36,449 nt of DNA, taken from a virus (lineage: Duplodnaviria; Heunggongvirae; Uroviricota; Caudoviricetes). Shown here piece after piece: positions 698 to 34,790 of the stretch. Where the stretch lies: IMG/VR virus record IMGVR_UViG_2541047954_000009. One strand, 5' to 3'. The notes beneath the pieces were generated by a model. The model made no database searches. It had not been told where the DNA came from and worked only from the letters and a program-made list of their open reading frames with translations. Position numbers and translations under genes: made by a program. Numbering within the stretch: the first letter of the stretch is position 1; each line of letters begins with the position of its first letter.

Positions 698-1060
698 GGG
701 GCTGATTCTGGATTCGACGGGATTTGCGAAACCCAAGGTGCATGCCGAGGGGCGGTTGGCCTCGTAAAAAGCCGCAAAAAATAGTCGCAAACGACGAAAA
801 CTACGCTTTAGCAGCTTAATAACCTGCTTAGAGCCCTCTCTCCCTAGCCTCCGCTCTTAGGACGGGGATCAAGAGAGGTCAAACCCAAAAGAGATCGCGT
901 GGAAGCCCTGCCTGGGGTTGAAGCGTTAAAACTTAATCAGGCTAGTTTGTTAGTGGCGTGTCCGTCCGCAGCTGGCAAGCGAATGTAAAGACTGACTAAG
1001 CATGTAGTACCGAGGATGTAGGAATTTCGGACGCGGGTTCAACTCCCGCCAGCTCCACCA
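698..1060 (+). ncRNA. ssrA: tmRNA (transfer-messenger RNA), 363 nt
   Basis: Begins GGGGCTGATTCTGGATTCGACGG, contains the tag-coding segment gcaaacgacgaaaactacgctttagcagcttaa (ANDENYALAA stop), and ends with the tRNA-like ...GGTTCAACTCCCGCCAGCTCCACCA; matches E. coli ssrA as remembered. Confidence 0.97.
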
Positions 1061-1061
1061 A
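1016..1061. repeat. attL: 46-bp direct repeat (ssrA 3' end), left prophage junction
   Basis: atgtaggaatttcggacgcgggttcaactcccgccagctccaccaa is repeated exactly at 34745-34790; the flanking bases diverge on both sides. Confidence 0.88.
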
Positions 1062-1070
1062 ATAAATCAA

Positions 1071-1103
1071 GGGGTTACGTGAAAGCGTAGCCCCTTTTTC
1101 TTT
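1071..1103 (+). terminator. Rho-independent terminator after ssrA (phage-supplied side of attL)
   Basis: Stem GGGGTTACG (1071-1079) pairs with CGTAGCCCC (1086-1094) with one G-U pair, followed by TTTTTCTTT. Confidence 0.65.
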
Positions 1104-1183
1104 GGTAGTGGCGGCAAAATGGCGACAGACTTTTGCGTCCATCTTGCCTGTCGCCATCTTGAAATCATGCAAAGAGGTTTCAC

Positions 1184-1666
1184 ATGGAAGAACTTCACTT
1201 TGTTTACATCAATGCAAATGGTCGTATCGGTGTTCACTCTATACAGAGCATCAGTTATAGCGAAAATCATATACAGGGCATTTGTAAGAACACCGATCGA
1301 ATAAAAACCTTCCGAAAAGACCGCATTCTTAAACAGTACGATTCACCAGAACAAGCCATTCAGGAATGCGCGTCATTCCTCCCCGAAAACTACTCACATC
1401 TCACTAAGCAGTCAGGTCCGAAAAAAAATACATTCGATGTGTGTTTCACCGGATTTAAGAAAGCAGATAAAGAAAGATTGGTTGATAAGGCGAATGACCA
1501 AGGATTAACGGTAAGAACCTCTATAACCCAAAGCCTTCAGATGCTCTGTTGCGGTTACAATGCAGGCCCATCAAAAGTATCGGCAGCCAGGATGAAAGGC
1601 ACAATCATCATAGATGAGCCTGGCTTTATACATTTTCTTGAAACGGGTGAGATCCCAGATGAATAA
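1184..1666 (+). CDS. Accessory protein with C-terminal BRCT-like domain and N-terminal WYL-like segment (160 aa)
   Basis: ORF with RBS AAGAGG 6 nt upstream of ATG. C-terminal half (DVCFTGFKKADKERLVDKANDQGLTVRTSITQ...TIIIDEPGFIHFLETGEI) resembles BRCT domains such as the C-terminus of NAD-dependent DNA ligase; the N-terminal motif KTFRKDRIL resembles the WYL-domain signature. Sits between attL and ogr, outside the conserved P2 backbone. Confidence 0.6.
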   Translation: MEELHFVYINANGRIGVHSIQSISYSENHIQGICKNTDRIKTFRKDRILKQYDSPEQAIQECASFLPENYSHLTKQSGPKKNTFDVCFTGFKKADKERLVDKANDQGLTVRTSITQSLQMLCCGYNAGPSKVSAARMKGTIIIDEPGFIHFLETGEIPDE

Positions 1667-1694
1667 AAACCTGCCGTAGCAGGTTCTCTTTCTT
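1662..1694. terminator. Bidirectional hairpin terminator between the BRCT gene and ogr
   Basis: Stem AACCTGC (1668-1674) and GCAGGTT (1679-1685), loop CGTA, flanked by an A-tract on one side and a T-rich tract on the other; convergent genes end on both sides. Confidence 0.55.
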
Positions 1695-1911
1695 AAAAAT
1701 TCATATGCCCCTGACCACCTGGCAATGGATGTGGAGGGGCTGTAGCAATCAATGCAGGTGTCACAATAAACCGGACCACTGTTTCATGGGTAACAAAAGT
1801 GCTCCCGCAGTTAATATTTTGGCACTGGCAGTAACGCTCTTTGGTGCTTTCTGTTACTTGAAAACTGCTCCTTGTGTGCGCCGCATGACCACACTTTGGA
1901 CAATTCATCAT
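1693..1911 (-). CDS. ogr: Late gene transcriptional activator Ogr (zinc finger, about 72 aa)
   Basis: Translation MMNCPKCGHAAHTRSSFQVTESTKERYCQCQNINCGSTF...PHPLPGGQ matches P2 Ogr/186 B family (CxxC...CxxC zinc finger); RBS GGGGG upstream of tandem ATGs at 1911/1908. The longer six-frame ORF start at 1956 is likely not used. Confidence 0.85.
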   Translation of the reverse strand: MMNCPKCGHAAHTRSSFQVTESTKERYCQCQNINCGSTFVTHETVVRFIVTPALIATAPPHPLPGGQGHMNF

Positions 1912-1979: not shown

Positions 1980-3080
1980 TTATTCTATTTCAAGATCATT
2001 AATCTTCACTTCAAGCTCCAGGCTGGTCGTAAAACCGTTATCCGGGCTGACAGTATGCGTCAGGGTGGTAATAGTCCATTCCGCATCATCTATCGGCTGT
2101 TTAAAGCCACTGACTTTCACTGGCATTTCCGTGTAGAGATCTGCCCGCCCTTCCGCCAGTTGTAGCGAGAATGACGCAACACCGCGTTGCAGGCGTTCCC
2201 ACTGCATTTTCGCCGCTCGTTCGGCGTTGCTCCGGTTGGCATAAGTGCGATTAAGTACCAGCACGTTTTCATCCGTACCCACCAGGTAATCGCCCTGCTT
2301 CGCTTCCGGCTCTTTCTTCTGCTTCTTAGTCCTGCGCTTACGCTTCACCGTGGTGCTTTCTTTCTTCGCGGGTTCGCGGGTATGCAACCAGCTGGCAATT
2401 ACGCCCGTGTAGGCTCCGCGATCTGCCAGGGTAAAGCGGTGACTGTCGCCGTCCTTGCGTGTGATAGTGATCACCGGCAGTGGTTTACCAGTGGCGCTTT
2501 TGCCCTGCCCCTGCCGGATGAATAACAGATTGCCATTTTTCACCGACGCGATGGCACCGTACTGTCGCGCCAGCCGCATCAGAAAACTGCCGTCACTCTC
2601 ATTGGTCTGGTCTATATGATCCACTGGCTTATCCGACAGGTCTTCACCCAGTGCCATCTTCAGCTTGTGCCGTGCGGCTATTTCCTTCACCACTTCCCCG
2701 ACGGTGGTCTTGTGCCACGATTTTTCACGGCGGGTATTCAGCGTTTCCCTAAAATCAGCACTTCGCGCCCGGATAGTCAGGCGATCCGGTGCGCCAGTGT
2801 GTTCAATCTCGTCCACCGTGAATGCCCCTTTCGGGAAAAGCGGCTGCCCCTTCCAGCCCAGCGCCAGCGTGATGACCGCACCACGGCGCGGCAGCACGAT
2901 TTTTCCGTCGGCGTCGTCCAGCTCCAGATCAAGCTGGTCTGCTTCAAAGCCCCGGTTATCCGTCAGCGTCAGACTCATCAGGCGGTTATCCAGCACAGTG
3001 GTGATATCCTTCCCCTCAATACTGATGCTGAATGCGGGAGTTTTGTTGCCTTTGTTAAGCAGTTCAGAGCTGAAATTCAC
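1980..3080 (-). CDS. D: Tail protein D (late control gene D family)
   Basis: 366-aa ORF resembling P2 gpD as remembered; positioned after ogr as in P2; start overlaps the stop of U. Confidence 0.9.
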   Translation of the reverse strand: MNFSSELLNKGNKTPAFSISIEGKDITTVLDNRLMSLTLTDNRGFEADQLDLELDDADGKIVLPRRGAVITLALGWKGQPLFPKGAFTVDEIEHTGAPDRLTIRARSADFRETLNTRREKSWHKTTVGEVVKEIAARHKLKMALGEDLSDKPVDHIDQTNESDGSFLMRLARQYGAIASVKNGNLLFIRQGQGKSATGKPLPVITITRKDGDSHRFTLADRGAYTGVIASWLHTREPAKKESTTVKRKRRTKKQKKEPEAKQGDYLVGTDENVLVLNRTYANRSNAERAAKMQWERLQRGVASFSLQLAEGRADLYTEMPVKVSGFKQPIDDAEWTITTLTHTVSPDNGFTTSLELEVKINDLEIE

Positions 3081-3562
3081 GACAGCAGCCCTCCCACCGT
3101 TTTACTGATATCGCTTAAGGCAGACGTTGCCGTATCCTGCAAATTATTCAGCTGCGAACTGAGATCACCGAACATATCGGACAGGGATTCATCCACCCGT
3201 TTGAGCGACAGGGTGAACTCAATCCGGCGCGGCATACCATCGCGGAAAAACTCCGTTTTAGTCTGATTCAGTCCCTCAATCACATACATGCCGTAAATCG
3301 TGCCGCTGCCTTCAATCAGGGGCCATGCTTTTCCCTGTTCTGCCATCTGCTCCAGAGCCAGCAACGACAGCCTGCCGCCCGTTATCTCCGGCATAAGAAC
3401 ACCAGAAAGCGTCAGCATATCGTTGTCCGGTCCCAGAAACTGCGTGGACGGACGTCGGTTGACCCGGCTGTTTGCCGCATGTCGCCAGCTGCGTTGATAC
3501 TGCAGTTCCTGATACGGCACAGTGCGCAGCATAAACACGTACAATCCCAGCACCATCATCAT
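3077..3562 (-). CDS. U: Tail protein U
   Basis: 161-aa ORF resembling P2 gpU; ATGA-type overlaps with T upstream and D downstream. Confidence 0.85.
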   Translation of the reverse strand: MMMVLGLYVFMLRTVPYQELQYQRSWRHAANSRVNRRPSTQFLGPDNDMLTLSGVLMPEITGGRLSLLALEQMAEQGKAWPLIEGSGTIYGMYVIEGLNQTKTEFFRDGMPRRIEFTLSLKRVDESLSDMFGDLSSQLNNLQDTATSALSDISKTVGGLLS

Positions 3563-6500
3563 GCGTCGTATCCCCCCTGATCGCTGTAGTTACTCCTGGC
3601 TTTTGCCTTCAGCCTGCGTTCACGTTCATCAAGCTGGCGGGCCACCTCCCGCGCAATATCCTGCGCACTTTGTCCTGGCTGCGTCTGGATGATGATCTGC
3701 GTCGGTGCCTCAATCCTGTAAACGGGCGGCACAGTGGCTGCGCGACTCACAATTGCTTCTCCACCTTTCGCGGGAAGTGCCAAAGGGTGCAATGGTGGAA
3801 GCTCTGCTGGCGCGGCAGCAACGCCCATCATTCCGGCAACAACGGCAGCCAGTGCAGCTGTATTTCTCCGGCTGGTCACATTTGCCGGGCCGTTAACAAT
3901 TTCCGGCCCGTTTTCACCGACGATGCCAAACTGCCCACGCGGGATATAGCCGCCGCTGTCATACATCCCCGCAAAGCCATATCCCCATGACGGAAAACCA
4001 CCCGATGGCATCATCACTTTACCGTCTGCATTCACCGTCGCAGGTTGCTGACGCGTCACGCTTTCCGGCAGTTTCGCCTTTGCAGCCTCTTTACTGACAA
4101 TGCCGAGTTTATCCAGCAACCAGGAAACGCCGGATTTCAGGGAGTCCAGCGGATGCATGACCATATTCAGCCCTTCCGCCAGTGCCTCCCCGAATCGTCG
4201 CCCCATTGCCGCTACACTCTGCAGTTCGGCAGAGGTTGACTTAACGGGCGTCAGCAGATCAGTAAACCAGCCCCACAGCGCCTGTACTTTGTCGCCAATC
4301 CACTGGAACACAGGCTTAAGTGGTTCGAATGCAGCACTGATGGGACCTGCCGCCGCTTTGAATCCCTCCACCACGCCACCGAGAAATGCGGTGATGGGTT
4401 GCCAGTATTTCCAGACAACCAGCGCCACGCCTGCCAGTGCAGTAACCACAAGACCTATCGGACTGAGCAGAGCACCTAACAGACCAGATATGGCATACAG
4501 GGCAACGCGTAGCATCGCCAGTGGACCAGATGCCAGTACTCGCAGCACCGCGCCTGCGGCGGTCAGTCCACCGCGCAGTACCGCCAGAGGATTCATAAAC
4601 ATCACAGCAACAGCACGTAAACCGGATAATCCAGAACGCAAAAGTGCAACCGGCGCACCTGCTACAGTTTTCAGGACATTTTCCGTCAGTGATGCCGTGC
4701 GGCGCAAAGACGACAACGGCGCAGTAAGTAAACCCGCAGCATTGCCCGATGAAGCAAGCCCGCGTCGCAGCAGTGCCAGTGGTGCGCCAGCCAGCCAGGA
4801 CAACGCGTTGCTGGTTCGAGTTACTGCTGCCGTAACGGAAGGTAACGTTTTGATACCCAGCACAGAGAATCCCAGACGGATGACTGCCAGCGGCCCCAGC
4901 ACTGCAGCCAGCGCCACCGCTAAGGTGCCGAGGCCTACGGTAACCGCAGCCACAACCGCTGCTACTTTCATCAGTGTGCCCGTCAGTTCCGGGTTAGCTT
5001 CCACCCAGCGGCGCAACGCCCCCGTGACGCTTTTCACCGTGTACAGAATATCCATCAGCGGCTGGCGCAGCGTTTCGCCTAGGCTGCTGAAGGTGTTCTG
5101 CGCTCCGGTTTTGACCAGCAACCACTGAGCAGAAAGTGAGTCTTTGTTGATGTCGGATTCTTTCTGCATGGAACCGAGCGCATCATTGCCCGCAGTCAGT
5201 TTTAGCTGGCGCTGTAGTTCCGGCAGGTTGTTTGCCAGTTTCGCCGCGTCATCGCCAAACTCTTTACCAAACAACATGGTCATGGCAGACAGACGCTTGT
5301 CCTGCGGCAGTGCGTTCACCTTCTCCAGCACACGCTGGATAGTTCCCATTGCATCCTTCGTCATCTGCTTTTCAATCGCTTCAGGATTGAGTTTCAGCAG
5401 ATTCATCCCTTCAAAGAAACTCTTGCTTTGCATGGTGGCAATGGACAATTCACGCACCATCGCGTTTGCTGCACTGGCTGCAACCTCCGGCGCAGCGCCC
5501 AGTGTCAGAAAGGTGGAACCCAGTGCCGCCGCTTTACGATAATCCAGACGATCAGCCACACCGCCCAGACGTTGCATCACATCAATGATGTCCGCCCCTT
5601 TCGACATGGCGTTATCATCCAGATAGTTCAGCGCATCGCCGAGCTGTTCAATATTGCGGGTAGGTATTTTGTAGAGCTGGGCGATTTTCCCCAGACTTTC
5701 TGACAGTTCATCCGCTGGCAGCTCAAAGGCTGTTGCCGCCTTTGCTGCCGTGCTGGCGAAGGCCAGCAGGTCACGTTTCTGGTCTTCCCAGCTGTCGTCA
5801 GGGTTTGCGACGTTCATGCGCGCACCACCTTCAACCAGTGCGGCGAAGTCCACAGCACCGTTTTCCATCGGCAACTGTTCGCTGGCAGCCTTGATGGCAT
5901 CCTGCATTTCATAAAAACGCGCGGTGCGGTTGCCATTATCATCACGCAGACCATTGACCTGCTTTGCCACACCTTTCATGGCATCTTCCATGCTGGTATA
6001 GCTTTTTACTGCCGCCATCACTGGTGCGCCCATTGCCAGCCCTGCAGCCGTGGTGGTGGCTCCGGCACCTGCAATACGATCACGCACCTCCAGCGAACGG
6101 GCATAACTGGCACGTGCTGCATTCATCCTGCGCTGAGCTTCCCCCAGTCGCTTCAGCCGCGCCTCCTGTTTCGAAAGTTCCTGGTTATAACGTGATGTTT
6201 CACGGGCTAAACGGGCAGTTGCTCCCGCATCGTCTTTCGCAGAAATTCCCGCCCGGTACAGCTCTGCACGCACAAGCGCCGTTTGCTTCTGCAAATATTT
6301 TTGTTGTTCTTCCAGGCGTTGGACTGCCAGCGTTTGCCGACCTAAAGCCACAAGGTGCCGTTGTGATGGTTGTTCCATCGCCTCCAGCTCAGAGCTAAGC
6401 AAATTAGCCTTCTGTCTGGCATAGTTCAGCCTGTCGCCTAACTTCTTGTTATCGGCCTGCAGCTTGCGAAATTTTTCCAGGCTGTTACCCGCCTGATTGA

Positions 6501-6636
6501 GTTGCTTTAATGCGTCACGGGAGTTTCTGATTGCGCCAGCCAGCTCTTTCGAACTGGCCTGTGCAGCACGGAATGGGCGGGTGAGTTTGTCAACCGCATT
6601 AAGAATCACCTGCAGGCGCAGGTTATTGTCACTCAT
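3559..6636 (-). CDS. T: Tail tape measure protein T (1025 aa)
   Basis: Very long Ala/Leu-rich ORF with a coiled-coil N-terminus and a Gly/Ala-rich hydrophobic middle, in the tape-measure position between E/E' and U. Confidence 0.92.
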   Translation of the reverse strand: MSDNNLRLQVILNAVDKLTRPFRAAQASSKELAGAIRNSRDALKQLNQAGNSLEKFRKLQADNKKLGDRLNYARQKANLLSSELEAMEQPSQRHLVALGRQTLAVQRLEEQQKYLQKQTALVRAELYRAGISAKDDAGATARLARETSRYNQELSKQEARLKRLGEAQRRMNAARASYARSLEVRDRIAGAGATTTAAGLAMGAPVMAAVKSYTSMEDAMKGVAKQVNGLRDDNGNRTARFYEMQDAIKAASEQLPMENGAVDFAALVEGGARMNVANPDDSWEDQKRDLLAFASTAAKAATAFELPADELSESLGKIAQLYKIPTRNIEQLGDALNYLDDNAMSKGADIIDVMQRLGGVADRLDYRKAAALGSTFLTLGAAPEVAASAANAMVRELSIATMQSKSFFEGMNLLKLNPEAIEKQMTKDAMGTIQRVLEKVNALPQDKRLSAMTMLFGKEFGDDAAKLANNLPELQRQLKLTAGNDALGSMQKESDINKDSLSAQWLLVKTGAQNTFSSLGETLRQPLMDILYTVKSVTGALRRWVEANPELTGTLMKVAAVVAAVTVGLGTLAVALAAVLGPLAVIRLGFSVLGIKTLPSVTAAVTRTSNALSWLAGAPLALLRRGLASSGNAAGLLTAPLSSLRRTASLTENVLKTVAGAPVALLRSGLSGLRAVAVMFMNPLAVLRGGLTAAGAVLRVLASGPLAMLRVALYAISGLLGALLSPIGLVVTALAGVALVVWKYWQPITAFLGGVVEGFKAAAGPISAAFEPLKPVFQWIGDKVQALWGWFTDLLTPVKSTSAELQSVAAMGRRFGEALAEGLNMVMHPLDSLKSGVSWLLDKLGIVSKEAAKAKLPESVTRQQPATVNADGKVMMPSGGFPSWGYGFAGMYDSGGYIPRGQFGIVGENGPEIVNGPANVTSRRNTAALAAVVAGMMGVAAAPAELPPLHPLALPAKGGEAIVSRAATVPPVYRIEAPTQIIIQTQPGQSAQDIAREVARQLDERERRLKAKARSNYSDQGGYDA

Positions 6637-7065
6637 GGCTGGCCCCGCTTCTCTGAATCGCTTTATACCGCCATTCCAGCACTTCGGTCAGCGGCATAAC
6701 GTCAGTAACGGATGGCGGCCAGTGAAAGATGGTGGCGATATCAGCCACCAGATCGTCAACCGTCAGGCTGTCGGTAAACCGGCAAGCACCGACTTCTTCA
6801 ACAAAAAAGTGACAACCTCAACCGACATGGCAGTGAGATCTGCCGGGTCCAGCTCTGCAATTTCCTGTGCAGTCAGTGCCGGACTGGAGATGCGGGGGAT
6901 CACGGTCATCATCGCGTTCACATCCATATCCATAATGGCCTGCAGGCGTGTGCCGCGCAGCGCACCGGACTGCGGTTTACGCAGCACAATTTCGGTAATT
7001 TCTGTTTTACCGCGCATGATGGGAGTATCCAGTTGAATGGTCTTTTCAGTCTGCTTATCGCTCAT
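6629..7065 (-). CDS. Tail assembly chaperone fusion E+E' made by programmed -1 frameshift
   Basis: Slippery heptamer TTTTTTG (minus strand, 6802-6808) lies 13 codons before the E stop; reading the -1 frame from it gives an open extension (FFVEEVGACRFTDSLTVDDLVADIATIFHWPPSVTDVMPLTEVLEWRYKAIQRSGASHE) ending at a TGA overlapping the T start codon. Confidence 0.8.
6763..7065 (-). CDS. E: Tail assembly chaperone E (100 aa)
   Basis: Small ORF directly upstream of T, resembling P2 gpE; contains the frameshift site near its 3' end. Confidence 0.88.
   Translation of the reverse strand: MSDKQTEKTIQLDTPIMRGKTEITEIVLRKPQSGALRGTRLQAIMDMDVNAMMTVIPRISSPALTAQEIAELDPADLTAMSVEVVTFLLKKSVLAGLPTA
6802..6808 (-). 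other. Programmed -1 ribosomal frameshift slippery site (TTTTTTG)
   Basis: Heptamer read directly on the minus strand within the last codons of E; same motif class as P2 E/E' and lambda G/GT. Confidence 0.8.
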
Positions 7066-7119: not shown

Positions 7120-7635
7120 TCAGAGGCCGAGGGCGTTGCGGTGCGCTTCCATCAGGTCCACACCGTCCACAATTTCCACCATGTTGATAAGGTCCACTTC
7201 ATAAAGCACCTCACCATTGATGGTCAGCTTCGCGTAGCTGTTGGTGCTGGTCACTTTGGTGGTGTTGCTTTCGCCCGTCTTCCACTCGCCGGAATCCACT
7301 TCTTTGTGACGTCCACGCACCACAAGCTCCACGGCCTGCACTTCCCCGGTATCGTCACGCTGGATAGAGCCGGTAAAGCGCAACTGGATGCCATCCACCG
7401 TGGCTTTGCCCATCTGCTTAAACAGCAGCAGTTCAGTACCACCAATGGAAAATTCTGTGTCCAGCGCACTGTCATCAAGCCCCAGATCCACATCCACTGC
7501 CCCCGGCATTCCGCCGCCGCGATACTTCTCATATTTGCGGGTGAATTTCGGCAGCGTCAGCGACTCAACGATCCCCTGCCAGTTGTTCCCGTCATTAAAC
7601 AGGTTCAGGTGTTTTAATTTGCGTGGTAAAGCCAT
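7120..7635 (-). CDS. FII: Tail tube protein FII
   Basis: 171-aa ORF resembling P2 gpFII, directly downstream of the sheath gene. Confidence 0.9.
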   Translation of the reverse strand: MALPRKLKHLNLFNDGNNWQGIVESLTLPKFTRKYEKYRGGGMPGAVDVDLGLDDSALDTEFSIGGTELLLFKQMGKATVDGIQLRFTGSIQRDDTGEVQAVELVVRGRHKEVDSGEWKTGESNTTKVTSTNSYAKLTINGEVLYEVDLINMVEIVDGVDLMEAHRNALGL

Positions 7636-7644: not shown

Positions 7645-8817
7645 TTACGCGCTGACCTGGGTGGCGAAATTCACCAGGTACTGATCGGTGATGCGCTGAC
7701 GCAGCATCAGGTTTTCAAGTGGCGGCACTGGCGTGTAGTCGTAGTCGATGGTGAGTTTTCCGGCTTTCAGCGTGTCTTTGTCGTTCACCGACTCATCCAG
7801 CCAGCAATCACCACCAATGAGATAGCCCTGACTGACCAGGCTGCGCATTTTGGCGCGGATACCCTCGATAATGTCGCGGGCCAGCGACGGATTCAGCGGT
7901 TTATCCACCGCCCACATGTGCGCTTCTGCCATCGTGTCCGTCAGCACCTGCGCCGTGCGGGTGTAGTTTTCGAAGGCAAAGAGCGGGTCATCACTCAGGC
8001 AGCGGGAACCCCAGAAGCGAAAACCGTCTTTGCGGATAAGGGTGGTAACGTCGTTCTGGTTCAGCAGTCCCGCATCGGTTGCCGGGTCCTGCAGATCCCA
8101 GAACACATCAGCAGAAATTCCGGTGACACCGTTCACGCCCACGTTGGACAGGCTTTTGTGCCATCCGGTCTGCTCGTCAATTTTGGCGCGCAGACCAAGC
8201 GCACGGGCGGTGGCATAAGCCGTTGCTTCGGCATTCAGCACCGTGTCCCAGCCAGTAAAGTCGGGCCAGATCAGCATTCCTTCACGCTGGCTGAAGTTTT
8301 CACGGTAAGTGATTGCTTCCTGCACCGTCTTGCAACCATACGCTGACAGGTAAGCAAATCCACGCAGGCTTTGCGCCACGCCCAGCAACTCAGTAGCAAC
8401 GGCTTTATTATCGTGCCCCGGCACGCCGAGGATGCGCGGTTTAACACCGAGCTGTGACTGGGCAGATAACAGGGCTTTCATACCAGTTTTTTTACCTTCA
8501 GCAGTCACTGCGCCGATGATATTGGTCGTGGTTTCGTCTTCCGTTTCACCCTGCGGCACACGCACAACAACGGTCACGGGTTTTGCCTGGTCAGCGATGG
8601 CATCCAGCGAACGGGCCAGCGTGCCGGACTCACCCGCTTTACCGCTGGCAGTCAGCACATCAGTGATCAGTACGGGTTTATTAAGAGGAAACATTTTTGC
8701 ATCGGCATCATCGCCCGTGCAGACCATGCCCACGATGGCGGTGCTCACCGTGGTAATGGATCGGGTGCCTTCGTTGACTTCAACAACGCGCACTCCGTGG
8801 TGGTAATCCTGAGCCAT
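7645..8817 (-). CDS. FI: Contractile tail sheath protein FI
   Basis: 390-aa ORF resembling P2 gpFI. Confidence 0.92.
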
Positions 8818-8892
8818 AAGGCAGTCTCTCCGGTTGTAGAGGGGGTCTGCCTATGTTCTGGTTGATACTCGCAGGGTGCACGCGATGGGGTT

Positions 8893-8910
8893 TGTATGGG
8901 AAATGGCACA
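8893..8910. promoter_or_regulatory. Candidate Ogr-dependent late promoter element (TGT-N12-ACA dyad) upstream of FI
   Basis: TGTATGGGAAATGGCACA, about 85 nt upstream of the FI start codon; P2 late promoters are known to carry a TGT-N12-ACA dyad upstream of the -35 region. Confidence 0.5.
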
Positions 8911-8951
8911 ACGACGGGGTGAAAAAATCCCCGCAGGCGCGGGGCAGGAAT

Positions 8952-26225: not shown

Positions 26226-26414
26226 TCAGCTGATGACATCCATTGAGCGGTTGTATTCGTGGGTTCTGATTTTTGCCATGAGTTCATCAGTCAATTCAGA
26301 AACCCACTGCAGAGCCAGCCCCTTCTCTTCATCACTACACTCACTAGCCGCTACAAGCTTAAGAAAAAAATCAATGCGCTGGAGCTTCAAAGACTCCAAA
26401 AAATAGTCCTGCAT
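26226..26414 (-). CDS. Small SOS-controlled protein, putative Tum-like antirepressor (62 aa)
   Basis: ORF starting MQDYFLESLKLQRIDFFLK with a strong RBS (AGGAGG) and a LexA box about 40 bp upstream; position relative to dinI, A and cos matches the 186 tum locus as remembered. The six-frame ORF start at 26516 lies upstream of the promoter and is rejected. Confidence 0.5.
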   Translation of the reverse strand: MQDYFLESLKLQRIDFFLKLVAASECSDEEKGLALQWVSELTDELMAKIRTHEYNRSMDVIS

Positions 26415-26455: not shown

Positions 26456-26475
26456 CACTGTTTATATTTACAGTA
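26456..26475. promoter_or_regulatory. LexA (SOS) box overlapping a sigma70-like promoter for the tum-like/dinI-like operon
   Basis: CACTGTTTATATTTACAGTA fits CTGT-N8-ACAG (consensus TACTGTATATATATACAGTA); on the minus strand a TTTACA -35-like hexamer lies just upstream and a TATACT -10-like hexamer overlaps the box. Confidence 0.8.
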
Positions 26476-26567: not shown

Positions 26568-28982
26568 TTAATACAGGTTCCGCCACTGATCATCTTCCTG
26601 CAAACGCTGGTTCCGATAGAAGATACGCAGGCCTGCTCCTGACGGAATACTGCCTCCGCGAAGGAGTAAATCGACCTCTTTCTCGCTGCCATCAAATCCT
26701 CTGGACTTCAGCTCATACACGAGCTGCAGTCGCTGATGGTCTGTAATTCGCTGTTTGTAGTCTTTACGCCGTTTCGGTTTCACCAGGCGTAACCTTGCTG
26801 CCAGTTCCCGGCGCTCTTTTTTGCTCATACTGTGCAGGTAATCGTGCAACTCCTTGTCATCCATGCTGGTAATGTCCGTTCTGGGGTCCCCATCAGCTGA
26901 TTTATCTTTCTCCTGTTGGTTCAAATTTTCAGCAAGGGGACAGTTATTGCCACGAGTCCAAGGGGCGCAAGCGCCCTGGTCGGCTGCCGCCTCCTGAACG
27001 TCAACGGCCTTACGAACCATTTTCCACTTCACGGCATGAGTGCAGATTTTGCCCTCTGCAATGGGTGACCAGATGCCATAAATACGAATGCCGTGATCGC
27101 CATAGGCGGTCGGCTCTTCGTTGATTTCATAAGCGGTTCTGATGAGGTGATATTTGCGGGGGACCAGTACGCCGCCCTGCTTCATGATGTAGGTGGCAAA
27201 ACAACCAGCATCAGCTGCAGCCAGAATGGCATCAAGGCGCGGGTTATCCAGTACCGGCGCACCTGCTTTTTTGTCACCCTGTTGCCTTGCCGCCTGACCA
27301 GCCAGCAATCGCAGTTCACGGTAAGCCTGACGCCCCGGAATGCCAAAGAAGCGGAATTGCTGAACACGATGCAGAGACGCCCAGGCATTAACGTATTCAG
27401 CGTTATCACGCAGAGATTTACCCGTTTCCTTGCTGATCTCGCCAGCCAGACCACGCCCGTCAATGTTCTTACTGATGTATTTCGCGATGTAGCTAGTCGG
27501 CGTTCCTTTGCGCGGGTTTATCAGCTCAGACTTAAAGCGTGGCCCCGTGTTATTACCCAGCTCCTCGCGGTCTTCACGAATGGCAAACTTACGCAACAAA
27601 GCAGTAATGGTGCGGCGATCTTTTTTGCGCATAAAACACAACAGGTGCCAGTGAACTGTACCGTCATGATGCGGCTCAGCCACCCGCACGCCATACCAGC
27701 GCAATCCGGCTTTGTGCATCGCCTTACGAAATGCAGCAAACATGCCGACCAGATAATCACTGCTTTGTCTTACCGTCGTATTTGTCCAGGTCGGGTTGGG
27801 CCTGCCGTTATTTAGCGTGGAATGGAAACGTGACGGACAGGTGATGGTGTAGAAAACGGCGCAGTCACCGCGCATTTCCGCGATAAGCTCCAGACCTTTA
27901 ACACAGGCCATCATCTCATTGCGGCGATGCGCAGGGTTGCTGCTGCTGGCGTTTACCACATCCTCCATGTCCAGCGTGTCGCCGTCTTCGTTCACCAGTT
28001 CATGAGAACGGAAAAACTCCAGCGACTTACGGCGCTGCTCACGTTTATGCATCACGGCTTCATAGCTGACATAGGGAGATGCTTTTTTGCTGACCAGGCA
28101 AACAGCACGCAACTGCTCTTCCCGCCATTCGCAACGCATCTTCCATAATTTCCGGTACCACCAATCGGCGCACAACATACGCGCCAGCGAACCCGGAATG
28201 AGTTCATAGGGCACGGGTTTACGGCGGTTTCTTTTCCGGCGGAGTTGCTCAAACGCAGGCGGTATGACATCCAGTCGCAGGGTTTCTGCTGCCACCTTTT
28301 CCCATGTCTTGCGGATTTCTTCTGGCTTAACGTCATCGGTGGCATACAAATCGCCACAAGCTGCATCAAGGCACATGCTCATATGCGCAGCAACAAGGGT
28401 GGACAGGCGTTTCACCTGATCCTGACTCATTTCAGGCAGAATCAGCAGGCCGTCCAGCCCTTCATGGCTTGCCATAAAGCGAAAAGAAGTGGATAGCTGA
28501 CTGTCGCGTACATGCTCCAGCCGTTCCAGACATGGCTTAATCGTCTCACGCAAATAGCGGGAATAAGCCTTTGGCCTGCCAAGGCTGCTGAAGTATTCAA
28601 TACGTTGCATCAGCGGCCTGCTGATATGGGAAGGCTGGGCGTTAACGTCTGCCAGAATGACCATGTCCGGGTTAAAACGCTGCTGCTCATGCGCCAACTT
28701 TGCCCGGCTAATGAGCTTATCCTGCTCCATTTCGCGCTGGACAGGATCACGGGATTCATTAAAGAAATAACGCTCCCAAACCTGATCACTCAGTGCCTCG
28801 CGGCGCAGTTGTTCCTGCTCGTTATCGGCAGCGTACAGAGTGATCAGGTTTGAAAGCGCAGAAACCGGCGCAACTTCCGCCGGGTCCAGATAAGGGTTAA
28901 TAGCCTTTTTCGGGCTGTTCCATGAGAATGCTGCGGCGGCCTCGTTAAAGCCGCTGCAGTTGTTCATATCAGCATGGCTCAT
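26568..28982 (-). CDS. A: Replication initiation protein A (rolling-circle endonuclease, 804 aa)
   Basis: Long ORF resembling the P2/186 gpA replication protein family as remembered; located in the early region upstream of the cos-proximal genes. Confidence 0.88.
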
Positions 28983-29836
28983 GCACGCACTCCGTACACG
29001 GCAGAACTATCCACGCCACGCGAAGGATCAAATCCCACCCAGCAGCGCGCCCCAGAAACAGCGATGATTTCTGTTGCAGATTTACTCTCGCCAGCCGACA
29101 CGCCGATGCTGCGTTTTGCCTTGATGTAGTGGTGAGTGAAATTTCGATACAGCGAACGGATCAGGGATGTGTCACTGTTAGAAACAATGACTGGATGACC
29201 TTCTGATGATCGATATTCAAGAACAGATGCCAGGTGATACTGGTCATCTTCAGTGAAGCCGTCAGTGTGATAGCCGGAAAACGTACCGTCATAAGGCGGA
29301 TCGCAATACACCACATCCCCCACCTGCAGCATCGCCAGCGTTTCATCAAAGCTGGCGCAGATAAACGTTGCTCGCTGGGCTTTCTCTGCAAATGCGCGAA
29401 TTTCTTTTTCAGGGAAATACGGATTTTTATAATTACCGTATGGAATGTTGAAATGCCCGCTCTTGTTATAACGACATAACCCACGGTAACCATGACGATT
29501 GAGATACAGGAAATATACCGCTTTCATGAAATCAGTAATTTCAGTGGAGTAATTAAACTCCTGCCTTATGTTGTAATAAGCCAACTCCCTGTTTGCTTCC
29601 TCAAATAAAGCTCTGGCACGAGATATAAACGCCTCGCAATCAGCAGCAACCTTTTTATAGAGGTTGATTAAATCAGGATTAATATCCGCAACAAGATAGC
29701 TGGGGTAATCCGTCTCCATCATCACAGCACAGGAACCCGCGAAAGGTTCAACCAGTCGCGGGCCAGCAGGAAGATGTTTTTTCAGTTCGGACATAATGGC
29801 AGTTTTATTACCCGCCCATTTCAGGATGGTACTCAT
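28979..29836 (-). CDS. dam: DNA adenine methyltransferase (Dam-like N6-adenine MTase)
   Basis: Resembles Dam from [15 protein letters not shown]...; contains the DPPY catalytic motif and AdoMet-binding FAGSCAV; start at ATG 29836 (RBS AGGAGG), not the upstream ORF start at 29908. Confidence 0.85.
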
Positions 29837-30135
29837 ACAGCACCTCCTGCAATAACATATCCTAAAGCTTCTAATGGGGTTAATGGGCGAATTGATAGCA
29901 TCACCCATTGTTCTGAAACTGCCATGACGTCATTAACCGGAAGCACATGAGAGATAACAGCGGCCCATTCCCTACCCGTAAATACGCCATGCTTCCATTC
30001 GCAAAGAGAAAGAACATCACCAACTTTATAGCCACGATCGTCTTTACGAAGTTCAGCCGTCTTTTGACCTGCAACCACAGCGTTGAAATACTTAGGTGCA
30101 ATTTTTAATTGATGGATACGCACTGCCCTTGTCAT
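29833..30135 (-). CDS. Small phage protein of the DUF3850/ASCH-like kind
   Basis: 100-aa ORF from [40 protein letters not shown]...; this pattern recurs next to dam in P2-like prophages as remembered. Confidence 0.55.
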
Positions 30136-30359
30136 ACAGCACCTCCGTTGTAATGTTTGCCTTTCAGCTCTGCGATTTCCTGGCAGGTAATGCAAAGCTG
30201 CACTCCCGGAATGGCGCGGCGTCGTGCTGGCGGAATTGGCGCTTCACATTCAATACAAAGCACGCGAGACACGCCCGGTGTTTTGGCACGGGCAGCACGA
30301 ATATGACGCTGGCGTTCTTCTTCAACGCGCTGCTGTACGAGATCCATTGCATCAGCCAT
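30132..30359 (-). CDS. TraR/DksA-family C4 zinc-finger protein
   Basis: 75-aa ORF with [26 protein letters not shown] (CxxC-N17-CxxC), like P2 orf82-type proteins. Confidence 0.75.
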
Positions 30360-30598
30360 TAGTGGATCTCCTGCGCTTCGTTCTGGATTGCTTCAGCAGT
30401 TACACGCAGCAGTTCTGCCGCTTCGACGTGGTTTAGCTGGCGGGATGTGATATGACACGCCAGGCTATCAAGGCGAGCTGCCATTGCTTCAGCCCTTGCC
30501 CGACGTTCTTCCAGACGAGCCTCTGTCAGTAAAATATTAAGCCCTGCGTCATCCGGTCCGGTTTTAGTCGTGAGGATTTCAATATTACGCATAATCAA
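30359..30598 (-). CDS. Hypothetical early-region protein (79 aa)
   Basis: ORF in an operon-like array with ATGA overlap to the downstream zinc-finger gene; no recognisable motif. Confidence 0.5.
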   Translation of the reverse strand: MIMRNIEILTTKTGPDDAGLNILLTEARLEERRARAEAMAARLDSLACHITSRQLNHVEAAELLRVTAEAIQNEAQEIH

Positions 30599-30659: not shown

Positions 30660-31001
30660 TTAATTCGGCATGGTTAGCCGTCTGGGAAATAAGCTCACCA
30701 CTGCACGAAAATGATTCATTGCTTTAATCAGCTCCCGCTTTTCGTCAGTGGTCAGCTCATTAATGCTGATGCTATGACGTTCAGCTGGAATTTTTGCCAT
30801 AAAGAATATGGCAGCCAGTGCCCGTTTATTTTGTTCATTATTGATATCCCGTGGATCACGCATATCTTTAATAAACCGCTCAAGCTCTGACTCAATATTC
30901 AGGCCAAATACTTTCGCCCTTAACTCCGCAATGTGATTAAGTCCATTCAGGCGTTCACCGGGGCTTAATGGAACAGTCGCCGCAGCGCCATTAATTGCCA
31001 T
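30660..31001 (-). CDS. Hypothetical early-region protein (113 aa)
   Basis: ORF in the 186-type early operon between the cII-proximal genes and A; no recognisable motif. Confidence 0.5.
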   Translation of the reverse strand: MAINGAAATVPLSPGERLNGLNHIAELRAKVFGLNIESELERFIKDMRDPRDINNEQNKRALAAIFFMAKIPAERHSISINELTTDEKRELIKAMNHFRAVVSLFPRRLTMPN

Positions 31002-31023
31002 AATTCATATCCCCAAAACGCAA

Positions 31024-31248
31024 CTATCGTTCTTTGTTCTTACGGTAACGTTCAAGAGGAGATACATTTTTTCGTATCGCCTCTTTAACCTGCTCTCCCC
31101 GTAAAAACGTCCCATCCCTTAGCGTGAAAAAGTAACTGCCATCGCCCGACAACGACGGATAACAACAGAGCAAATCATCTTCAGGTACTGAATAACTCTC
31201 CCCTCTGTAACGAAACTGATAAACCACTTCACTTTCCGCTGCATACAT
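31024..31248 (-). CDS. Hypothetical early-region protein (74 aa)
   Basis: ORF with RBS GGAG 9 nt upstream of the ATG; acidic, soluble-looking sequence. Confidence 0.5.
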   Translation of the reverse strand: MYAAESEVVYQFRYRGESYSVPEDDLLCCYPSLSGDGSYFFTLRDGTFLRGEQVKEAIRKNVSPLERYRKNKER

Positions 31249-31415
31249 TTTGACTTTCTCCGTTTCCTCGTGGTCAATTCAGACAGCAATTCATATTGTG
31301 AATGACATGGATGCCAGCGTTTACCATCCTCACCCATGATCCAGCCGTGACCGTAGTGCATTGCCGGGCTTTGTTTTACCAGCAGCGATGCAAATGATGG
31401 TTCTTTCGTCAGCAT
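31119..31415 (-). CDS. Small early-region protein (about 98 aa) overlapping the next gene out of frame
   Basis: ATG at 31415 with RBS GAGGTG just after the cII stop; the frame stays open to 31119 and so overlaps the 31024-31248 gene by about 130 nt in another frame. Extent uncertain. Confidence 0.35.
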   Translation of the reverse strand: MLTKEPSFASLLVKQSPAMHYGHGWIMGEDGKRWHPCHSQYELLSELTTRKRRKSKCMQRKVKWFISFVTEGRVIQYLKMICSVVIRRCRAMAVTFSR

Positions 31416-31422
31416 AAGCACC

Positions 31423-31932
31423 TCACAGCAAACCGAATGAAGCACCGAGGCCAGTCACGGTATCAACTGCACTCACCATCGCAGGATTAGCCTGTAAACG
31501 GGCCTGCAATGAAACAGCCGCCAGCGCCATCAGTCGTGTTACAGAGTTAATGCTGCTGATAGCATCACGACGACCGGCACTAGTTTTTACATCACCAGAT
31601 ACCGCACCTGCTGCAACACGCCCGATCTCTGCAGTTGCGCTCATGACGTAATGCGGCAGTTTCTCTTTTGCCACCTCATTAATCGGTACACATGGCAGAC
31701 AATGAATCTGTGCCAGAAAACCATCTACCAGCGTTGAATCTTCAGTCAGATCGGTAAGCAGCCAGATTTCTGGTGCGGTTAATAAATGAGGCTGAGCTGG
31801 GTTCAGCTTGTTCCGCAGAATCTGCACATTCATGCCTGCACGTTCTGCCAGTTGCACCAGGTTGTGACGCAGTGCAAAAGCCCTACAGGCTTCATCGAAA
31901 TGCGGATGTTTGGAAATCTTGTAATCAAACAT
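31423..31932 (-). CDS. cII: CII-like lysogeny-establishment transcriptional activator (169 aa)
   Basis: Resembles 186 CII as remembered ([24 protein letters not shown]...[16 protein letters not shown]...), same length and position after the apl-like gene. Confidence 0.8.
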
Positions 31933-31964: not shown

Positions 31965-32207
31965 TTACTTACCAACAATGACGCGGAAGTTGGAATGACC
32001 GAGGGATTCACGGACCTGATCAGTTTTGTACATCAGATAACGAAGGCTTACGCGGCCTTTATTTTTTTCTTTCTTGACCATGTACTTAGCAAGTTGACCA
32101 TGGTGAATTTTTTGGTAAACAGAGCCACGGGAAATGCCCTCCCACTCTGCGAACTCTGCAGGCGTAGCCATCTCTTTTGGTACACGAATTGAAATATCAG
32201 TACTCAT
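31965..32207 (-). CDS. Apl/Cox-like excisionase and lytic-promoter regulator (HTH)
   Basis: 80-aa ORF, first gene of the rightward early operon, divergent from cI; contains an HTH-like segment (FAEWEGISRGSVYQKIHHGQL). Confidence 0.6.
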   Translation of the reverse strand: MSTDISIRVPKEMATPAEFAEWEGISRGSVYQKIHHGQLAKYMVKKEKNKGRVSLRYLMYKTDQVRESLGHSNFRVIVGK

Positions 32208-32328: not shown

Positions 32329-32961
32329 ATGTTAAACATCAGAATGGGTTCCGATACGGGAGGTAAGGCAGCTATTGAGAGGCTGCTTGAGGCTTATGGA
32401 TTCACAACTAAGCAGGCATTAAGCGAGCACCTGAATGTCTCAAAAAGTACTATGGCAAACAGAGTGTTACGTGACAGTTTTCCTGCTGACTGGATAATTC
32501 AGTGTGCACTAGAAACCGGTGTTTCGTTACTTTGGTTAGCCACTGGACAGGGAAGCATGAAAGAAGGATACGAGCCTGAGAAAAGATCTCATAACGAGAA
32601 CAAACAAGCAATTAAACCGTTATCCAAACTCATAACTCCATCTATTCCTAAAGGAACCTTGGAAAATGGACAACTCAGTATTGATGAAGAGATTTTCCTA
32701 GACCACAGCATATTACCTGCAGATTATGAAGAATCGATGTTCTTAGAAACCCCTACTGATTGTTATCTCATCGATAAATCAGTTAAACAAGTCAGCAATG
32801 GATTCTGGCTTATCAATATTGATGGAATGATTATTATTGCAAAAATCATGCGGATTCCCGGCAATAAGATTGTAGTAAATCAAGATGAAGCGTCTTTCGA
32901 GTGCTCTGCTGATGATGTGGAAGTTATTGGGCGTGCAGTCAAAGTAATAAAGAGTATCTAA
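32329..32961 (+). CDS. cI: CI-like immunity repressor (210 aa)
   Basis: ORF with an N-terminal HTH-like region (TTKQALSEHLNVSKSTMANRV), divergent from the apl-like gene and directly followed by int as in 186; RBS GGAG 7 nt upstream. Confidence 0.75.
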   Translation: MLNIRMGSDTGGKAAIERLLEAYGFTTKQALSEHLNVSKSTMANRVLRDSFPADWIIQCALETGVSLLWLATGQGSMKEGYEPEKRSHNENKQAIKPLSKLITPSIPKGTLENGQLSIDEEIFLDHSILPADYEESMFLETPTDCYLIDKSVKQVSNGFWLINIDGMIIIAKIMRIPGNKIVVNQDEASFECSADDVEVIGRAVKVIKSI

Positions 32962-32963
32962 AC

Positions 32964-33980
32964 ATGACTGTCAGAAAACAGCCAAACGGTAAATGGTTGT
33001 GCGAGTGCTATCCCAATGGACGCAATGGCAAGCGCGTGCGTAAGCAATTTGCTACGAAAGGCGAAGCCATTGCTTTTGAAAGCTTCACAATGGAAGAAGT
33101 GAACAAAAAACCATGGCTGGGGGAAAAGGAAGATCGGCGACACCTATCAGAATTAATTGAGCAGTGGTATTCCCTGTATGGTCAAACACTCGCAGACCCC
33201 AAGCGCCTCATAGCGAAACTTAGAATTATCTGTAATGGTCTAGGCGATCCCATCGCTTCAGAACTGACAGCCGGTGACTTTACGAAATACCGCGAAGCAC
33301 GGTTAAAAGGTGAAGTACGAAATGAAGATGGCACGTTTATGTCGCCCGTTAAGCCCCGCACGGTAAACCTTGAACAGCGCAATCTATCATCTGTTTTTGG
33401 TACACTGAAAAAGCTGGGCCACTGGTCAGCCCCCAACCCGCTTGCTGGGCTGCCAACATTTAAAATTGCTGAGAGTGAATTGGCGTTCCTGACCCCGGAA
33501 GAAATTAAACGTCTGCTGGATGCCTGCGCCGATTCTCAAAGCTCCAGCCTGCTTTTGATTGCAAAAATATGCCTGGCCACCGGCGCACGCTGGAGCGAAG
33601 CCGAAAACCTGCAGAGTCATCAGGTATCAAAATACCGTATCACTTATACCAAGACCAAAGGCAAGAAAAACCGAACTGTGCCTATTTCTAAGGATTTATA
33701 TGAAGAACTGCCTAAGAATAGGGGGAAGTTATTCACCCCATGCAGAAAAGCCTTTGAGCGTGCAGTAAAGCGGGCTGGTATCGATCTGCCAGAGGGTCAA
33801 TGTACTCACGTTCTGCGTCATACATTCGCTAGCCATTTTATGATGAATGGTGGAAACATATTGGTTTTGCGGGATATCCTAGGACATTCAGATATAAAAA
33901 TGACCATGGTCTATGCACACTTCGCCCCAGACCATTTAGAAGATGCCGTAACTAAAAATCCTTTATTTAATTTGAGGTAA
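32964..33980 (+). CDS. int: Tyrosine site-specific integrase (P2/186 Int family)
   Basis: 338-aa ORF with the C-terminal catalytic region of tyrosine recombinases (ATGARWSEAENL...HVLRHTFASHFMMNGGNILVLRDILGHSDIKMTMVYAH); adjacent to the att site. Confidence 0.93.
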   Translation: MTVRKQPNGKWLCECYPNGRNGKRVRKQFATKGEAIAFESFTMEEVNKKPWLGEKEDRRHLSELIEQWYSLYGQTLADPKRLIAKLRIICNGLGDPIASELTAGDFTKYREARLKGEVRNEDGTFMSPVKPRTVNLEQRNLSSVFGTLKKLGHWSAPNPLAGLPTFKIAESELAFLTPEEIKRLLDACADSQSSSLLLIAKICLATGARWSEAENLQSHQVSKYRITYTKTKGKKNRTVPISKDLYEELPKNRGKLFTPCRKAFERAVKRAGIDLPEGQCTHVLRHTFASHFMMNGGNILVLRDILGHSDIKMTMVYAHFAPDHLEDAVTKNPLFNLR

Positions 33981-33990
33981 GTAGTAATTT

Positions 33991-34659
33991 ATGAATAGCG
34001 AACTAGAGTTACTTATAAAAATATTATTCCCTTCCCTATCTGCCATTATATCCTTATTAGGGCTTAAAACAGGGTGGACTTATAAAAAAGACAAACTATT
34101 CACATCACGTAAAAACATTAGCGAATTTTCATATCAAATGTATAAAAGCAGTGAAGATCCGACCTTCAAAAAACTGGCGGAAGATTACGGCATTGCTGCA
34201 TTAACCAAAGATAACACATTGACAAAAAAACAAAGATTAATATTACTCAACACAACAAACCCCGTTAGCGATATAGATGATTATTCCAAATGTCAAAGTC
34301 TAATTTCCATTACCACCCATAAAGAAATATTCGCATGGAATAAAAAAAGATATAAATACAGCATATATAGAAAATTAATAAAAATTATAACAACTCTAAT
34401 TTACTTCATGGGCAGTCTCGTCGTAGCACTTCCTTTCAGTTATTCTGTTGTAGTAAGTGCTAAGATGATGGAGAAGATAAACCATCTAACTACTTGGCAA
34501 TACTTTGGTTTAAGCAGCTATTTTGTGGTATCGGGAGTAGCAATATGCTTTATCTGCCTAGATAAGCTCTCCAAGATTAAGATCGCCGAGAGATTAATCG
34601 TTTCAAATAGGCGTTTAGGCGACAAATGCAGTGGCGGCACTTTGGCGGCAGAAAGTTAA
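33991..34659 (+). CDS. AT-rich accessory membrane protein (222 aa) between int and attR
   Basis: ORF with an N-terminal hydrophobic segment (LLIKILFPSLSAIISLLGL) and two C-terminal hydrophobic helices (ITTLIYFMGSLVVALPFSYSVVV; FGLSSYFVVSGVAICFICL); AT-rich with a weak RBS; no recognisable family. Confidence 0.55.
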   Translation: MNSELELLIKILFPSLSAIISLLGLKTGWTYKKDKLFTSRKNISEFSYQMYKSSEDPTFKKLAEDYGIAALTKDNTLTKKQRLILLNTTNPVSDIDDYSKCQSLISITTHKEIFAWNKKRYKYSIYRKLIKIITTLIYFMGSLVVALPFSYSVVVSAKMMEKINHLTTWQYFGLSSYFVVSGVAICFICLDKLSKIKIAERLIVSNRRLGDKCSGGTLAAES

Positions 34660-34744
34660 AAACCCATAAAACGGACAGACACCGCATAAATCTAACCAAC
34701 TGAAAATCAAAGCAAATCATTGTTTTTACAGACATTGAAATGCT

Positions 34745-34790
34745 ATGTAGGAATTTCGGACGCGGGTTCAACTCCCGCCAGCTCCACCAA
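34745..34790. repeat. attR: 46-bp direct repeat of the ssrA 3' end, right prophage junction
   Basis: Exact copy of 1016-1061; the sequences on either side diverge. Confidence 0.88.

Follow-up and report, generated by a model that had tools for sequence, protein, structure and literature searches.

A direct repeat of the 3' end of ssrA, the gene for transfer-messenger RNA (tmRNA), encloses most of the IMG/VR virus record IMGVR_UViG_2541047954_000009, a stretch of 36,449 nucleotides analyzed here over its full length (the window), and raises the question of what was inserted at this locus, whether it is still a complete phage, and from which phages its parts derive. A sequence-only reading had described the insert as an apparently intact and inducible hybrid prophage with P2-type late genes and a 186-type early region. 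In this study, we compared the locus with sequenced phages and E. coli chromosomes, and we conclude with good confidence that the insert is the complete genome of a temperate Peduoviridae phage of the 186/Fels-2 lineage, closest to Escherichia phage Cartapus (Elveevirus) and residing in the 3' end of ssrA in an E. coli chromosome, where the flanking DNA matches that of B2-type strains. The positions of all mapped features are given in Table 1.

A repeat search of the window revealed an exact 46-nt direct repeat, ATGTAGGAATTTCGGACGCGGGTTCAACTCCCGCCAGCTCCACCAA, and no other long-range exact repeat. A 46-mer matching by chance is effectively impossible, and the repeat unit, prophage plus one core, measures 33,729 bp. 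The tmRNA was also the sole match in an Rfam scan of the whole window. For an empty-site construct, window positions 461-1061 were fused to 34791-35500 (1311 nt), and these fused flanks were found uninterrupted and 100% identical in E. coli Nissle 1917, ABU 83972, clone D i2/i14, and many uropathogenic E. coli strains. Since the fused flanks are fully contiguous in strains with an empty site, the junctions are exact, as had been proposed from the 46-bp repeats. The empty smpB-ssrA-glaH arrangement is present in 709 of 5426 complete E. coli genomes. The att copies duplicate the 3' end of ssrA, the gene is intact, and the empty site can be recovered, as expected of a prophage that integrates into a tRNA or tmRNA gene. 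Judged by its flanks, the host is E. coli, with sequences matching phylogroup-B2-type strains. ssrA is also the integration site of Fels-2 and SopEPhi (PMC3448106). Right after the attL core, the native sequence 3' of ssrA has been swapped for a phage-borne terminator-like hairpin.

The gene content of the insert is that of a Peduoviridae phage. The proteins gpL, gpM, gpN, gpO, gpP, gpQ, and gpT are listed as hallmarks of this family (PMC13100340), and full-length matches to Phage_GPL, Phage_term_smal, Phage_cap_P2, Phage_GPO, Terminase_5/6N/6C, Phage_portal, and PhageMin_Tail in Pfam were obtained, with a hallmark gene order matching P2 and 186. Further family features are a contractile-tail module, an Ogr/Delta-type activator with TGT-N12-ACA sites, a 19-nt cos, and an E/E' -1 frameshift, whose -1 frame is open and leads to a 145-amino-acid (aa) product ending at the start of T. 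Full-length Pfam matches also extended to the sheath, tube, gpD, Ogr/Delta, gpA, CII, CI, integrase, lysozyme, holin, LysC, tail fiber, and fiber chaperone proteins. In the map of open reading frames (ORFs), no core gene is split or truncated and no frameshift or stop was detected, which agrees, together with the full-length Pfam and tblastn matches, with the earlier statement that every morphogenesis and lysis gene is present and undamaged. The overlapping stop/start codons said to be kept are seen in the ORF coordinates at D/U, U/T, I/H, J/I, V/W, R/S, P/paralogue/Q, and A/dam, and the lysogeny switch (CI, Apl, and CII), integrase, replication gene (gpA), and cos site could all be located. 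Several non-core cargo genes, an extra terminase-like ORF, and an altered fil C terminus go beyond what that reading had noted. A P4-like satellite or a decayed remnant mimicking a prophage has nothing in its favor beyond the tRNA-like site, which is used also by satellites and by islands such as CP4-57; the insert, at 33.7 kb, has complete sets of genes for head, tail, lysis, terminase, and replication functions, and psu, sid, and delta genes are absent. On this gene content we rejected both readings, which we regard as next to impossible.

To place the phage among its relatives, GenBank phages were searched. By megablast, the late region matched the prophage-derived records 500465-1 and Klebsiella Kp48xx at 91-98% coverage and 94-96% identity, and the early region was 94-96% identical to Salmonella phage RE-2010 and to Cartapus. 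Protein-by-protein tblastn identified Cartapus as the closest phage overall, with most core proteins 97-100% identical: gpP (over all 588 aa), FII, and Apl at 100%, N, FI, and CII at 99%, L, M, O, D, and A at 98%, and CI at 97%. Further away were Int (95%), Q (91%), T (89%), LysB (85%), and S (84%). Core protein lengths are equal to those of Cartapus or off by one or two codons. Identity of core proteins to RE-2010 was 85-99%. Collinear blocks that are 88-98% identical to Cartapus cover ~80% of the prophage, and modules of ~6 kb are non-homologous. With thresholds of the International Committee on Taxonomy of Viruses of ~70% nucleotide identity for a genus and 95% for a species, both over full length, the prophage and Cartapus likely belong to one genus; membership in the same species is borderline as judged from these blocks. 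The exact prophage is not present among the complete E. coli genomes of RefSeq, where the best match for the right 15.4 kb is strain MINF_1D (92% coverage, 97% identity).

Synonymous divergence (dS) from Cartapus is ~0.07-0.25 across late and early genes, and the ratio of nonsynonymous to synonymous divergence (dN/dS, Nei-Gojobori) is below 0.15 in 21 of 28 genes. Higher ratios were found for T, S, Y, X, cI, and lysB, the last of which overlaps lysC. The int, Q, and S genes reach a dS of 0.5-0.7, compared with ~0.1-0.2 in their neighbors, which suggests local recombination beside cargo hotspots.

We then asked whether the genome is a hybrid. A protein-by-protein comparison with P2 and 186 upheld one half of the earlier claim, a 186-type early region, and gave no support to the other: the late genes show no bias toward P2. 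For 17 late proteins, tblastn identities to 186 and P2 are about equal, at about 40-69%: D has 57% to 186 and 54% to P2, FI 69% and 68%, J 63% and 65%, N 59% to both, P 63% to both, and Q 62% to both. A recent recombination between late genes of a P2-type phage and early genes of a 186-type phage would fit the finding that homologues of CI, Apl, CII, Fil, and Tum/DinI exist only in 186 and not in P2, as well as the assignment of the late genes to Pfam "P2 family" models. The equal distance of the late proteins from both phages speaks against it, and so do the holin and lysozyme, which match neither P2 nor 186, and the ORF between P and Q, which has a counterpart in 186 (NP_052250, "similar to Orf12") and none in P2. 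Moreover, 186, Fels-2, PSP3, and relatives all pair P2-like late operons with a CI/Apl/CII/Tum early region (PMC3448106), an architecture that is ancestral to them and normal in this lineage. The early region is nearer to RE-2010 (dS ~0.1) than the late region (dS 0.5-1.7), which could be read in favor of recombination and points to modular exchange within the lineage; judged by these distances, such exchange is visible only at this finer scale, both regions being near to Cartapus. Closeness to Cartapus is uniform along the genome, and we therefore read the element as a normal member of the 186/Fels-2 lineage and consider a P2 x 186 recombinant very improbable.

The early region carries the 186/Fels-2-type genes CI, Apl, CII, and Fil, the last with a variant C terminus. 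No early-region protein gave a tblastn match to P2 C, cox, or B, and a P2-type switch module was not found. A LexA box sits just upstream of a two-gene operon consisting of a 62-aa ORF and a DinI-family gene, whose 77-aa product is equivalent to the C-terminal half of 186 Tum (41% identity to residues 71-145). The description of the early region as 186-type is thereby borne out. PMC3121763 reports that tum is likewise split in Fels-2 and PSP3, with the upstream half serving as the antirepressor. Synteny, together with PSP3 data cited second-hand, points to the 62-aa ORF as the putative antirepressor half of a split tum. The sole gene with a structural change is fil. Relative to RE-2010 and Cartapus, an insertion of 258 bp in the region 31001-31445 brings in a 74-aa ORF and replaces the 3' end of fil; the resulting variant has 98 aa, and a PHROG family of 98 aa matches the longer form end to end. 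In 186, fil is non-essential.

The cis-acting sites are also preserved. Cartapus and RE-2010 have exactly the cos core of the window, with ~150 bp on the gene-A side identical or nearly so, and the homology stops ~10 nt toward Q; the cos regions of P2 and 186 align to window positions 25765-25843. A location directly behind Q, in the 50-bp gap where P2 has its cos, was considered and dropped, as cos is absent there and homology places it 2.5 kb on, past a cargo gene. The motif TGT-N12-ACA, typical of Ogr/B sites, occurs eight times in the window, and each of the three short intergenic regions among the late genes (O/P, V, and FI) holds one of the eight. Reconstruction of attP showed that the repeats GTGGCGGCA, TTGGCGGCA, and ATGGCGACA flank the core on both sides. 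These arm-type repeats are conserved in Cartapus and resemble the 186 Int consensus YAYCGCCAYTY.

From these genes and sites a life cycle can be proposed. The sequence itself shows that the tyrosine integrase recombined attP, carrying the 46 bp of ssrA 3' sequence between flanking arm-type sites, with attB, and that the tmRNA was rebuilt and is followed by the phage-borne terminator. By analogy with 186, Fels-2, and PSP3, lysogeny would be kept by CI. Upon SOS-inducing damage, LexA repression at its box (26458-26473) would be lifted, and the putative 62-aa antirepressor, expressed with its DinI-like partner, would inactivate CI; Apl and Int would then excise the genome. gpA would presumably begin rolling-circle replication, Ogr/B would activate four late operons via the TGT-N12-ACA sites, and the terminase (M and P) would cut cos (25759-25777) and fill P2-type capsids. 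Given the intact genes, intact sites, and purifying selection, a functional, inducible prophage is plausible, and the DNA that Cartapus encapsidates would count in favor of an intact phage.

Several observations weigh against this reading. The 62-aa ORF gave no alignment to the N-terminal half of 186 Tum, and at the LexA box a simple sigma-70 consensus scan picked up no promoter; in the cI-apl spacer, the same type of scan gave a weak candidate only. The C terminus of Fil is replaced, and the Prokaryotic Genome Annotation Pipeline labels fil a pseudogene in a near-identical prophage. The encapsidated DNA of Cartapus is low-level, at 3.3x10^5 genomes/mL, and neither plaques nor virions in transmission electron microscopy were obtained (PMC9928086). 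Finally, inactivating missense changes may go undetected in silico. An intact-looking prophage could be functionally cryptic, a fixed part of the chromosome retained for its defense cargo and Dam, and could fail to excise, package, or infect through subtle missense changes or host incompatibility. The very low titer of Cartapus and its lack of plaques and myovirus particles fit this alternative, as do the modules in which the prophage is unlike Cartapus: fiber tip and chaperone, extra LysA-like gene, extra terminase-like ORF, and altered fil. Against it stand full-length core genes with mostly low dN/dS, the intact cos, att arms, LexA box, late-promoter dyads, and frameshift site, essential genes free of insertion sequence elements, deletions, and pseudogenes, and the recurrence of the variant modules, intact, in other prophages. 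We consider a cryptic state unlikely, with a chance that is still well above those of the other alternatives, and retain a complete temperate phage as the preferred interpretation.

Table 1. Features mapped in the window (positions in nucleotides of the whole stretch, except for the last row)
Feature	Position	Strand	Remarks
ssrA (tmRNA)	698-1060	+	Rebuilt by attL copy; ARAGORN; Rfam RF00023, 295.8 bits, full model
attL core	1016-1061	+	46 bp, ssrA 3' end
Terminator-like hairpin	1069-1096	+	Phage-borne, directly after rebuilt ssrA
P' arm	1107-1158		Integrase arm-type repeats GTGGCGGCA, ATGGCGACA and inverted copy
BRCT-like cargo protein	1184-1666	+	160 aa; phrog_2561; between ogr and attL
ogr/B late-gene activator	1693-1911	-	Ogr_Delta zinc finger, 72 aa
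gpD tail/baseplate hub	1980-3080	-
gpU tail protein	3077-3562	-
gpT tape measure	3559-6636	-	1025 aa, length as in Cartapus
gpE	6763-7065	-
E+E'	6629-7065	-	Slippery TTTTTTG at 6802-6808
gpFII tail tube	7120-7635	-
gpFI tail sheath	7645-8817	-
TGT-N12-ACA dyad	8893-8910		Ogr/B-type site, upstream of FI
gpG tail fiber assembly	8952-9554	-	Caudo_TAP
gpH tail fiber	9554-11290	-	Phage_tail_fib N-terminal and Collar domains
Baseplate I	11287-11892	-
Baseplate J	11885-12793	-
Baseplate W	12780-13139	-
Baseplate V	13136-13714	-
TGT-N12-ACA dyad	13761-13778		Upstream of V
Tail completion S	13783-14229	-
Tail completion R	14222-14674	-
LysC/Rz1	14616-14906	-
LysB/Rz	14749-15177	-
LysA-like membrane protein	15230-15559	-
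Lysozyme K	15561-16073	-
Holin Y	16054-16269	-
X	16273-16476	-
L head completion	16476-16940	-
M small terminase	17036-17686	-
N major capsid	17690-18745	-
O scaffold/protease	18762-19595	-
TGT-N12-ACA dyad	19674-19691		Divergent O/P promoter region
gpP large terminase	19738-21504	+	588 aa
Terminase ATPase-domain paralogue	21501-22211	+	Stand-alone, 236 aa
gpQ portal	22208-23239	+
RloC/PrrC-like cargo gene	23289-25625	-	778 aa; AAA_13, PADLOC PDC-S06; between Q and cos
cos region	25753-25960	-	19-nt core GGCGTGGCGGGGATACGAG at 25759-25777
DinI-like protein	25982-26215	-	77 aa
62-aa ORF	26226-26414	-	First SOS-operon gene; phrog_698
LexA box	26458-26473		CTGTTTATATTTACAG; single CTGT-N8-ACAG of the window
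gpA replication initiator	26568-28982	-	Phage_GPA; HUH-like HWHLL and YIAKY motifs
Dam methylase	28979-29836	-
DUF3850	29833-30135	-
DksA-like	30132-30359	-
DUF2732	30359-30592	-
DUF5347	30660-31001	-
74-aa ORF	31024-31248	-	phrog_4312
Fil variant	31119-31415	-
CII	31423-31932	-	Phage_CP76
Apl/Cox-like excisionase and repressor	31965-32207	-
CI repressor	32329-32961	+	Phage_CI_repr and Phage_CI_C
Tyrosine integrase	32964-33980	+
Predicted membrane protein	33991-34659	+	222 aa; phrog_21256; int-att hotspot
P arm	34630-34651		Arm-type repeats GTGGCGGCA, TTGGCGGCA, within 3' end of the 222-aa ORF
attR core	34745-34790	+	46 bp
Paralogue in other loci	L008 4001-4708; L009 4001-4708; L003 1215-1961		Positions within the respective loci

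Within the tail module, the fiber gene H contains an in-frame tandem duplication of 222 nt (74 aa) at 10202-10645, with copies that are 88% identical. gpH has 578 aa, compared with 502 aa in 500465-1, and the excess of 76 aa stems nearly entirely from this duplication.

Breakpoints relative to Cartapus coincide with modules that are variable in the lineage, and cargo genes occupy known positions: the cos-proximal hotspot between gpA and gpQ is well documented, and int-att is a reported minor hotspot. The former holds a 778-aa gene with a G+C content of 0.31-0.36, of which a 99.5%-identical copy lies at the same position in E. coli MINF_1D. Its product matches AAA_13 over the full length (E = 5e-164) and PDC-S06 (E = 3e-266), with a weak match to PrrC (5e-11), and is 26% identical to Streptococcus prophage genes annotated as RloC. 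RloC and PrrC are marked by an ABC/Rad50-like ATPase head, a CxxC zinc hook in a coiled coil, and a C-terminal nuclease with an Arg/Glu/His triad. Walker A, a CPFCQQ hook-like motif, LSEGE, Walker B, and LTHN (H-loop) are shared with the RloC-annotated gene, and R649, E653 (D in Javan105), and H725 are conserved in the alignment. A PDB sequence search gave no match. The protein is a candidate single-gene defense system, an RloC-like AAA_13 ATPase.

At the int-att hotspot, the 222-aa predicted membrane protein matched only a PHROG family of unknown function, over its full length; Pfam, PADLOC, and NCBIfam gave no match, nor did tblastn against GenBank phages. Two of the Int arm-type repeats lie inside the last codons of its ORF. 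At the other end, the BRCT-like protein is 98% identical to the Cartapus moron LF82_783, whose reported expression in the LF82 lysogen is 15-fold over background (PMC9928086). Annotations of this 160-aa protein vary ("DNA ligase," "exonuclease"), and it has a weak PADLOC match to PDC-S48. Further accessory genes are those for Dam, DUF3850, and the LysA-like membrane protein. The hotspot cargo (RloC-like, int-side membrane, and BRCT-like proteins) and Dam probably serve the host in the lysogen, likely in defense against other phages. Two cargo sites of relatives are empty in the window: 13714-13783, where Cartapus and RE-2010 have an S-V gene, and 8817-8952 between G and FI, where relatives carry an invertase/alternative-fiber segment or fun(Z).

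A further non-core gene lies between P and Q and is translationally coupled to both; its start overlaps the P stop and its stop overlaps the Q start. The 236-aa product matches Terminase_6N (ATPase) only and aligns to gpP residues 142-368 with 32% identity, without the N-terminal gpP-like domain and the C-terminal nuclease; identity to the 248-aa counterpart at the same position in 186 is also 32%. A database search revealed a family of 235-241-aa paralogues in E. coli, Salmonella, Citrobacter, Klebsiella, Leclercia, and Phytobacter, and two divergent members that were looked up are both in the P-paralogue-Q position with the same overlaps. Protein length and gene order are conserved among divergent P2-like prophages of the Enterobacteriaceae. 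The adenine-binding YQ, RQxGA, the catalytic Glu, and the TPS coupling motif are conserved in the alignment. In all paralogues except that of 186, the Walker-A-like GAT is changed to GAD, paired with a change of Walker B LDE to (V/A)SE. The dN/dS is ~0.23. Neither this protein nor the cargo proteins matched NCBIfam, and a literature search on the paralogue found nothing. Cartapus, RE-2010, and P2, all three lacking the paralogue, do not need it. From its conservation and motifs, we tentatively consider it possible, if on balance doubtful, that the paralogue is functional and under selection, an accessory to the packaging operon whose role is as yet undescribed. Conceivable tasks are modulation of the packaging motor or a part in terminase-targeting conflicts, e.g., with satellites or host terminase sensors.

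Apart from a few swapped-in cargo genes, the element is an ordinary Fels-2/Cartapus-type P2-like prophage. Salmonella and E. coli are well-documented hosts of such ssrA phages, whose cargo hotspots have been catalogued across thousands of genomes. The value of this locus is that of a cleanly delimited example with a known empty site and with cos, att arms, LexA box, and late promoters mapped, together with one candidate single-gene defense beside cos and two uncharacterized cargo genes adjoining the att sites. Only the conserved terminase-ATPase paralogue that separates P from Q could reward experimental work.

Among known phages, Cartapus (Elveevirus cartapus, NC_070909), a prophage at ssrA-glaH in E. 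coli LF82, has the same integration site and gene order, an identical cos core and P' arm, and the BRCT-like moron. The window has, and Cartapus lacks, the terminase-domain paralogue, the LysA-like gene, DUF3850, and the 74-aa ORF, whereas Cartapus carries an invertase with an alternative fiber segment and the S-V cargo gene. The tail-fiber tip and chaperone also differ, and the hotspots hold different cargo: RloC-like versus DUF4145 between Q and cos, and the 222-aa membrane protein versus a RES-like protein between int and att. The record 500465-1 (Wadgaonvirus, NC_049342), a predicted ssrA prophage, is 94% identical in DNA over 98% of the late region and shares the LysA-like gene and the terminase-like ORF between P and Q, but it includes host flanks, a gpA disrupted by an insertion sequence, an invertase segment, TIR cargo, and a shorter paralogue.

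Fels-2 and RE-2010 (Felsduovirus) share the ssrA site, the 186-type switch, the split LexA-controlled tum, and the cos core, and their early region is 95-100% identical in protein. The late region of RE-2010 is far from that of the window (dS 0.5-1.7, protein identity 68-97%); besides having no terminase paralogue, RE-2010 carries other cargo (AIPR and a 401-aa protein after int) and an 84-bp att repeat. Phage 186 (Eganvirus) has the same layout of P2-like late operons, ogr/B, att, int, cI, apl, cII, and fil, followed by A, the LexA-controlled tum, and cos; a terminase-like ORF likewise separates its terminase and portal genes, and its arm-type sites are similar. It differs in protein identity (only 30-69%), in its tRNA-Ile site and fused Tum, and in its lysis and early accessory genes. 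P2 (Peduovirus) shares a homologous late gene set and order (38-68% protein identity), TGT-N12-ACA late promoters, the E/E' frameshift, 12 of the first 13 nt of the cos core, and a cargo hotspot near cos. It differs in its C/Cox/B early region, in lacking CII, Fil, and Tum, and in being non-inducible; its cargo genes old and tin are found across cos from where the window carries its cargo, between Q and cos.

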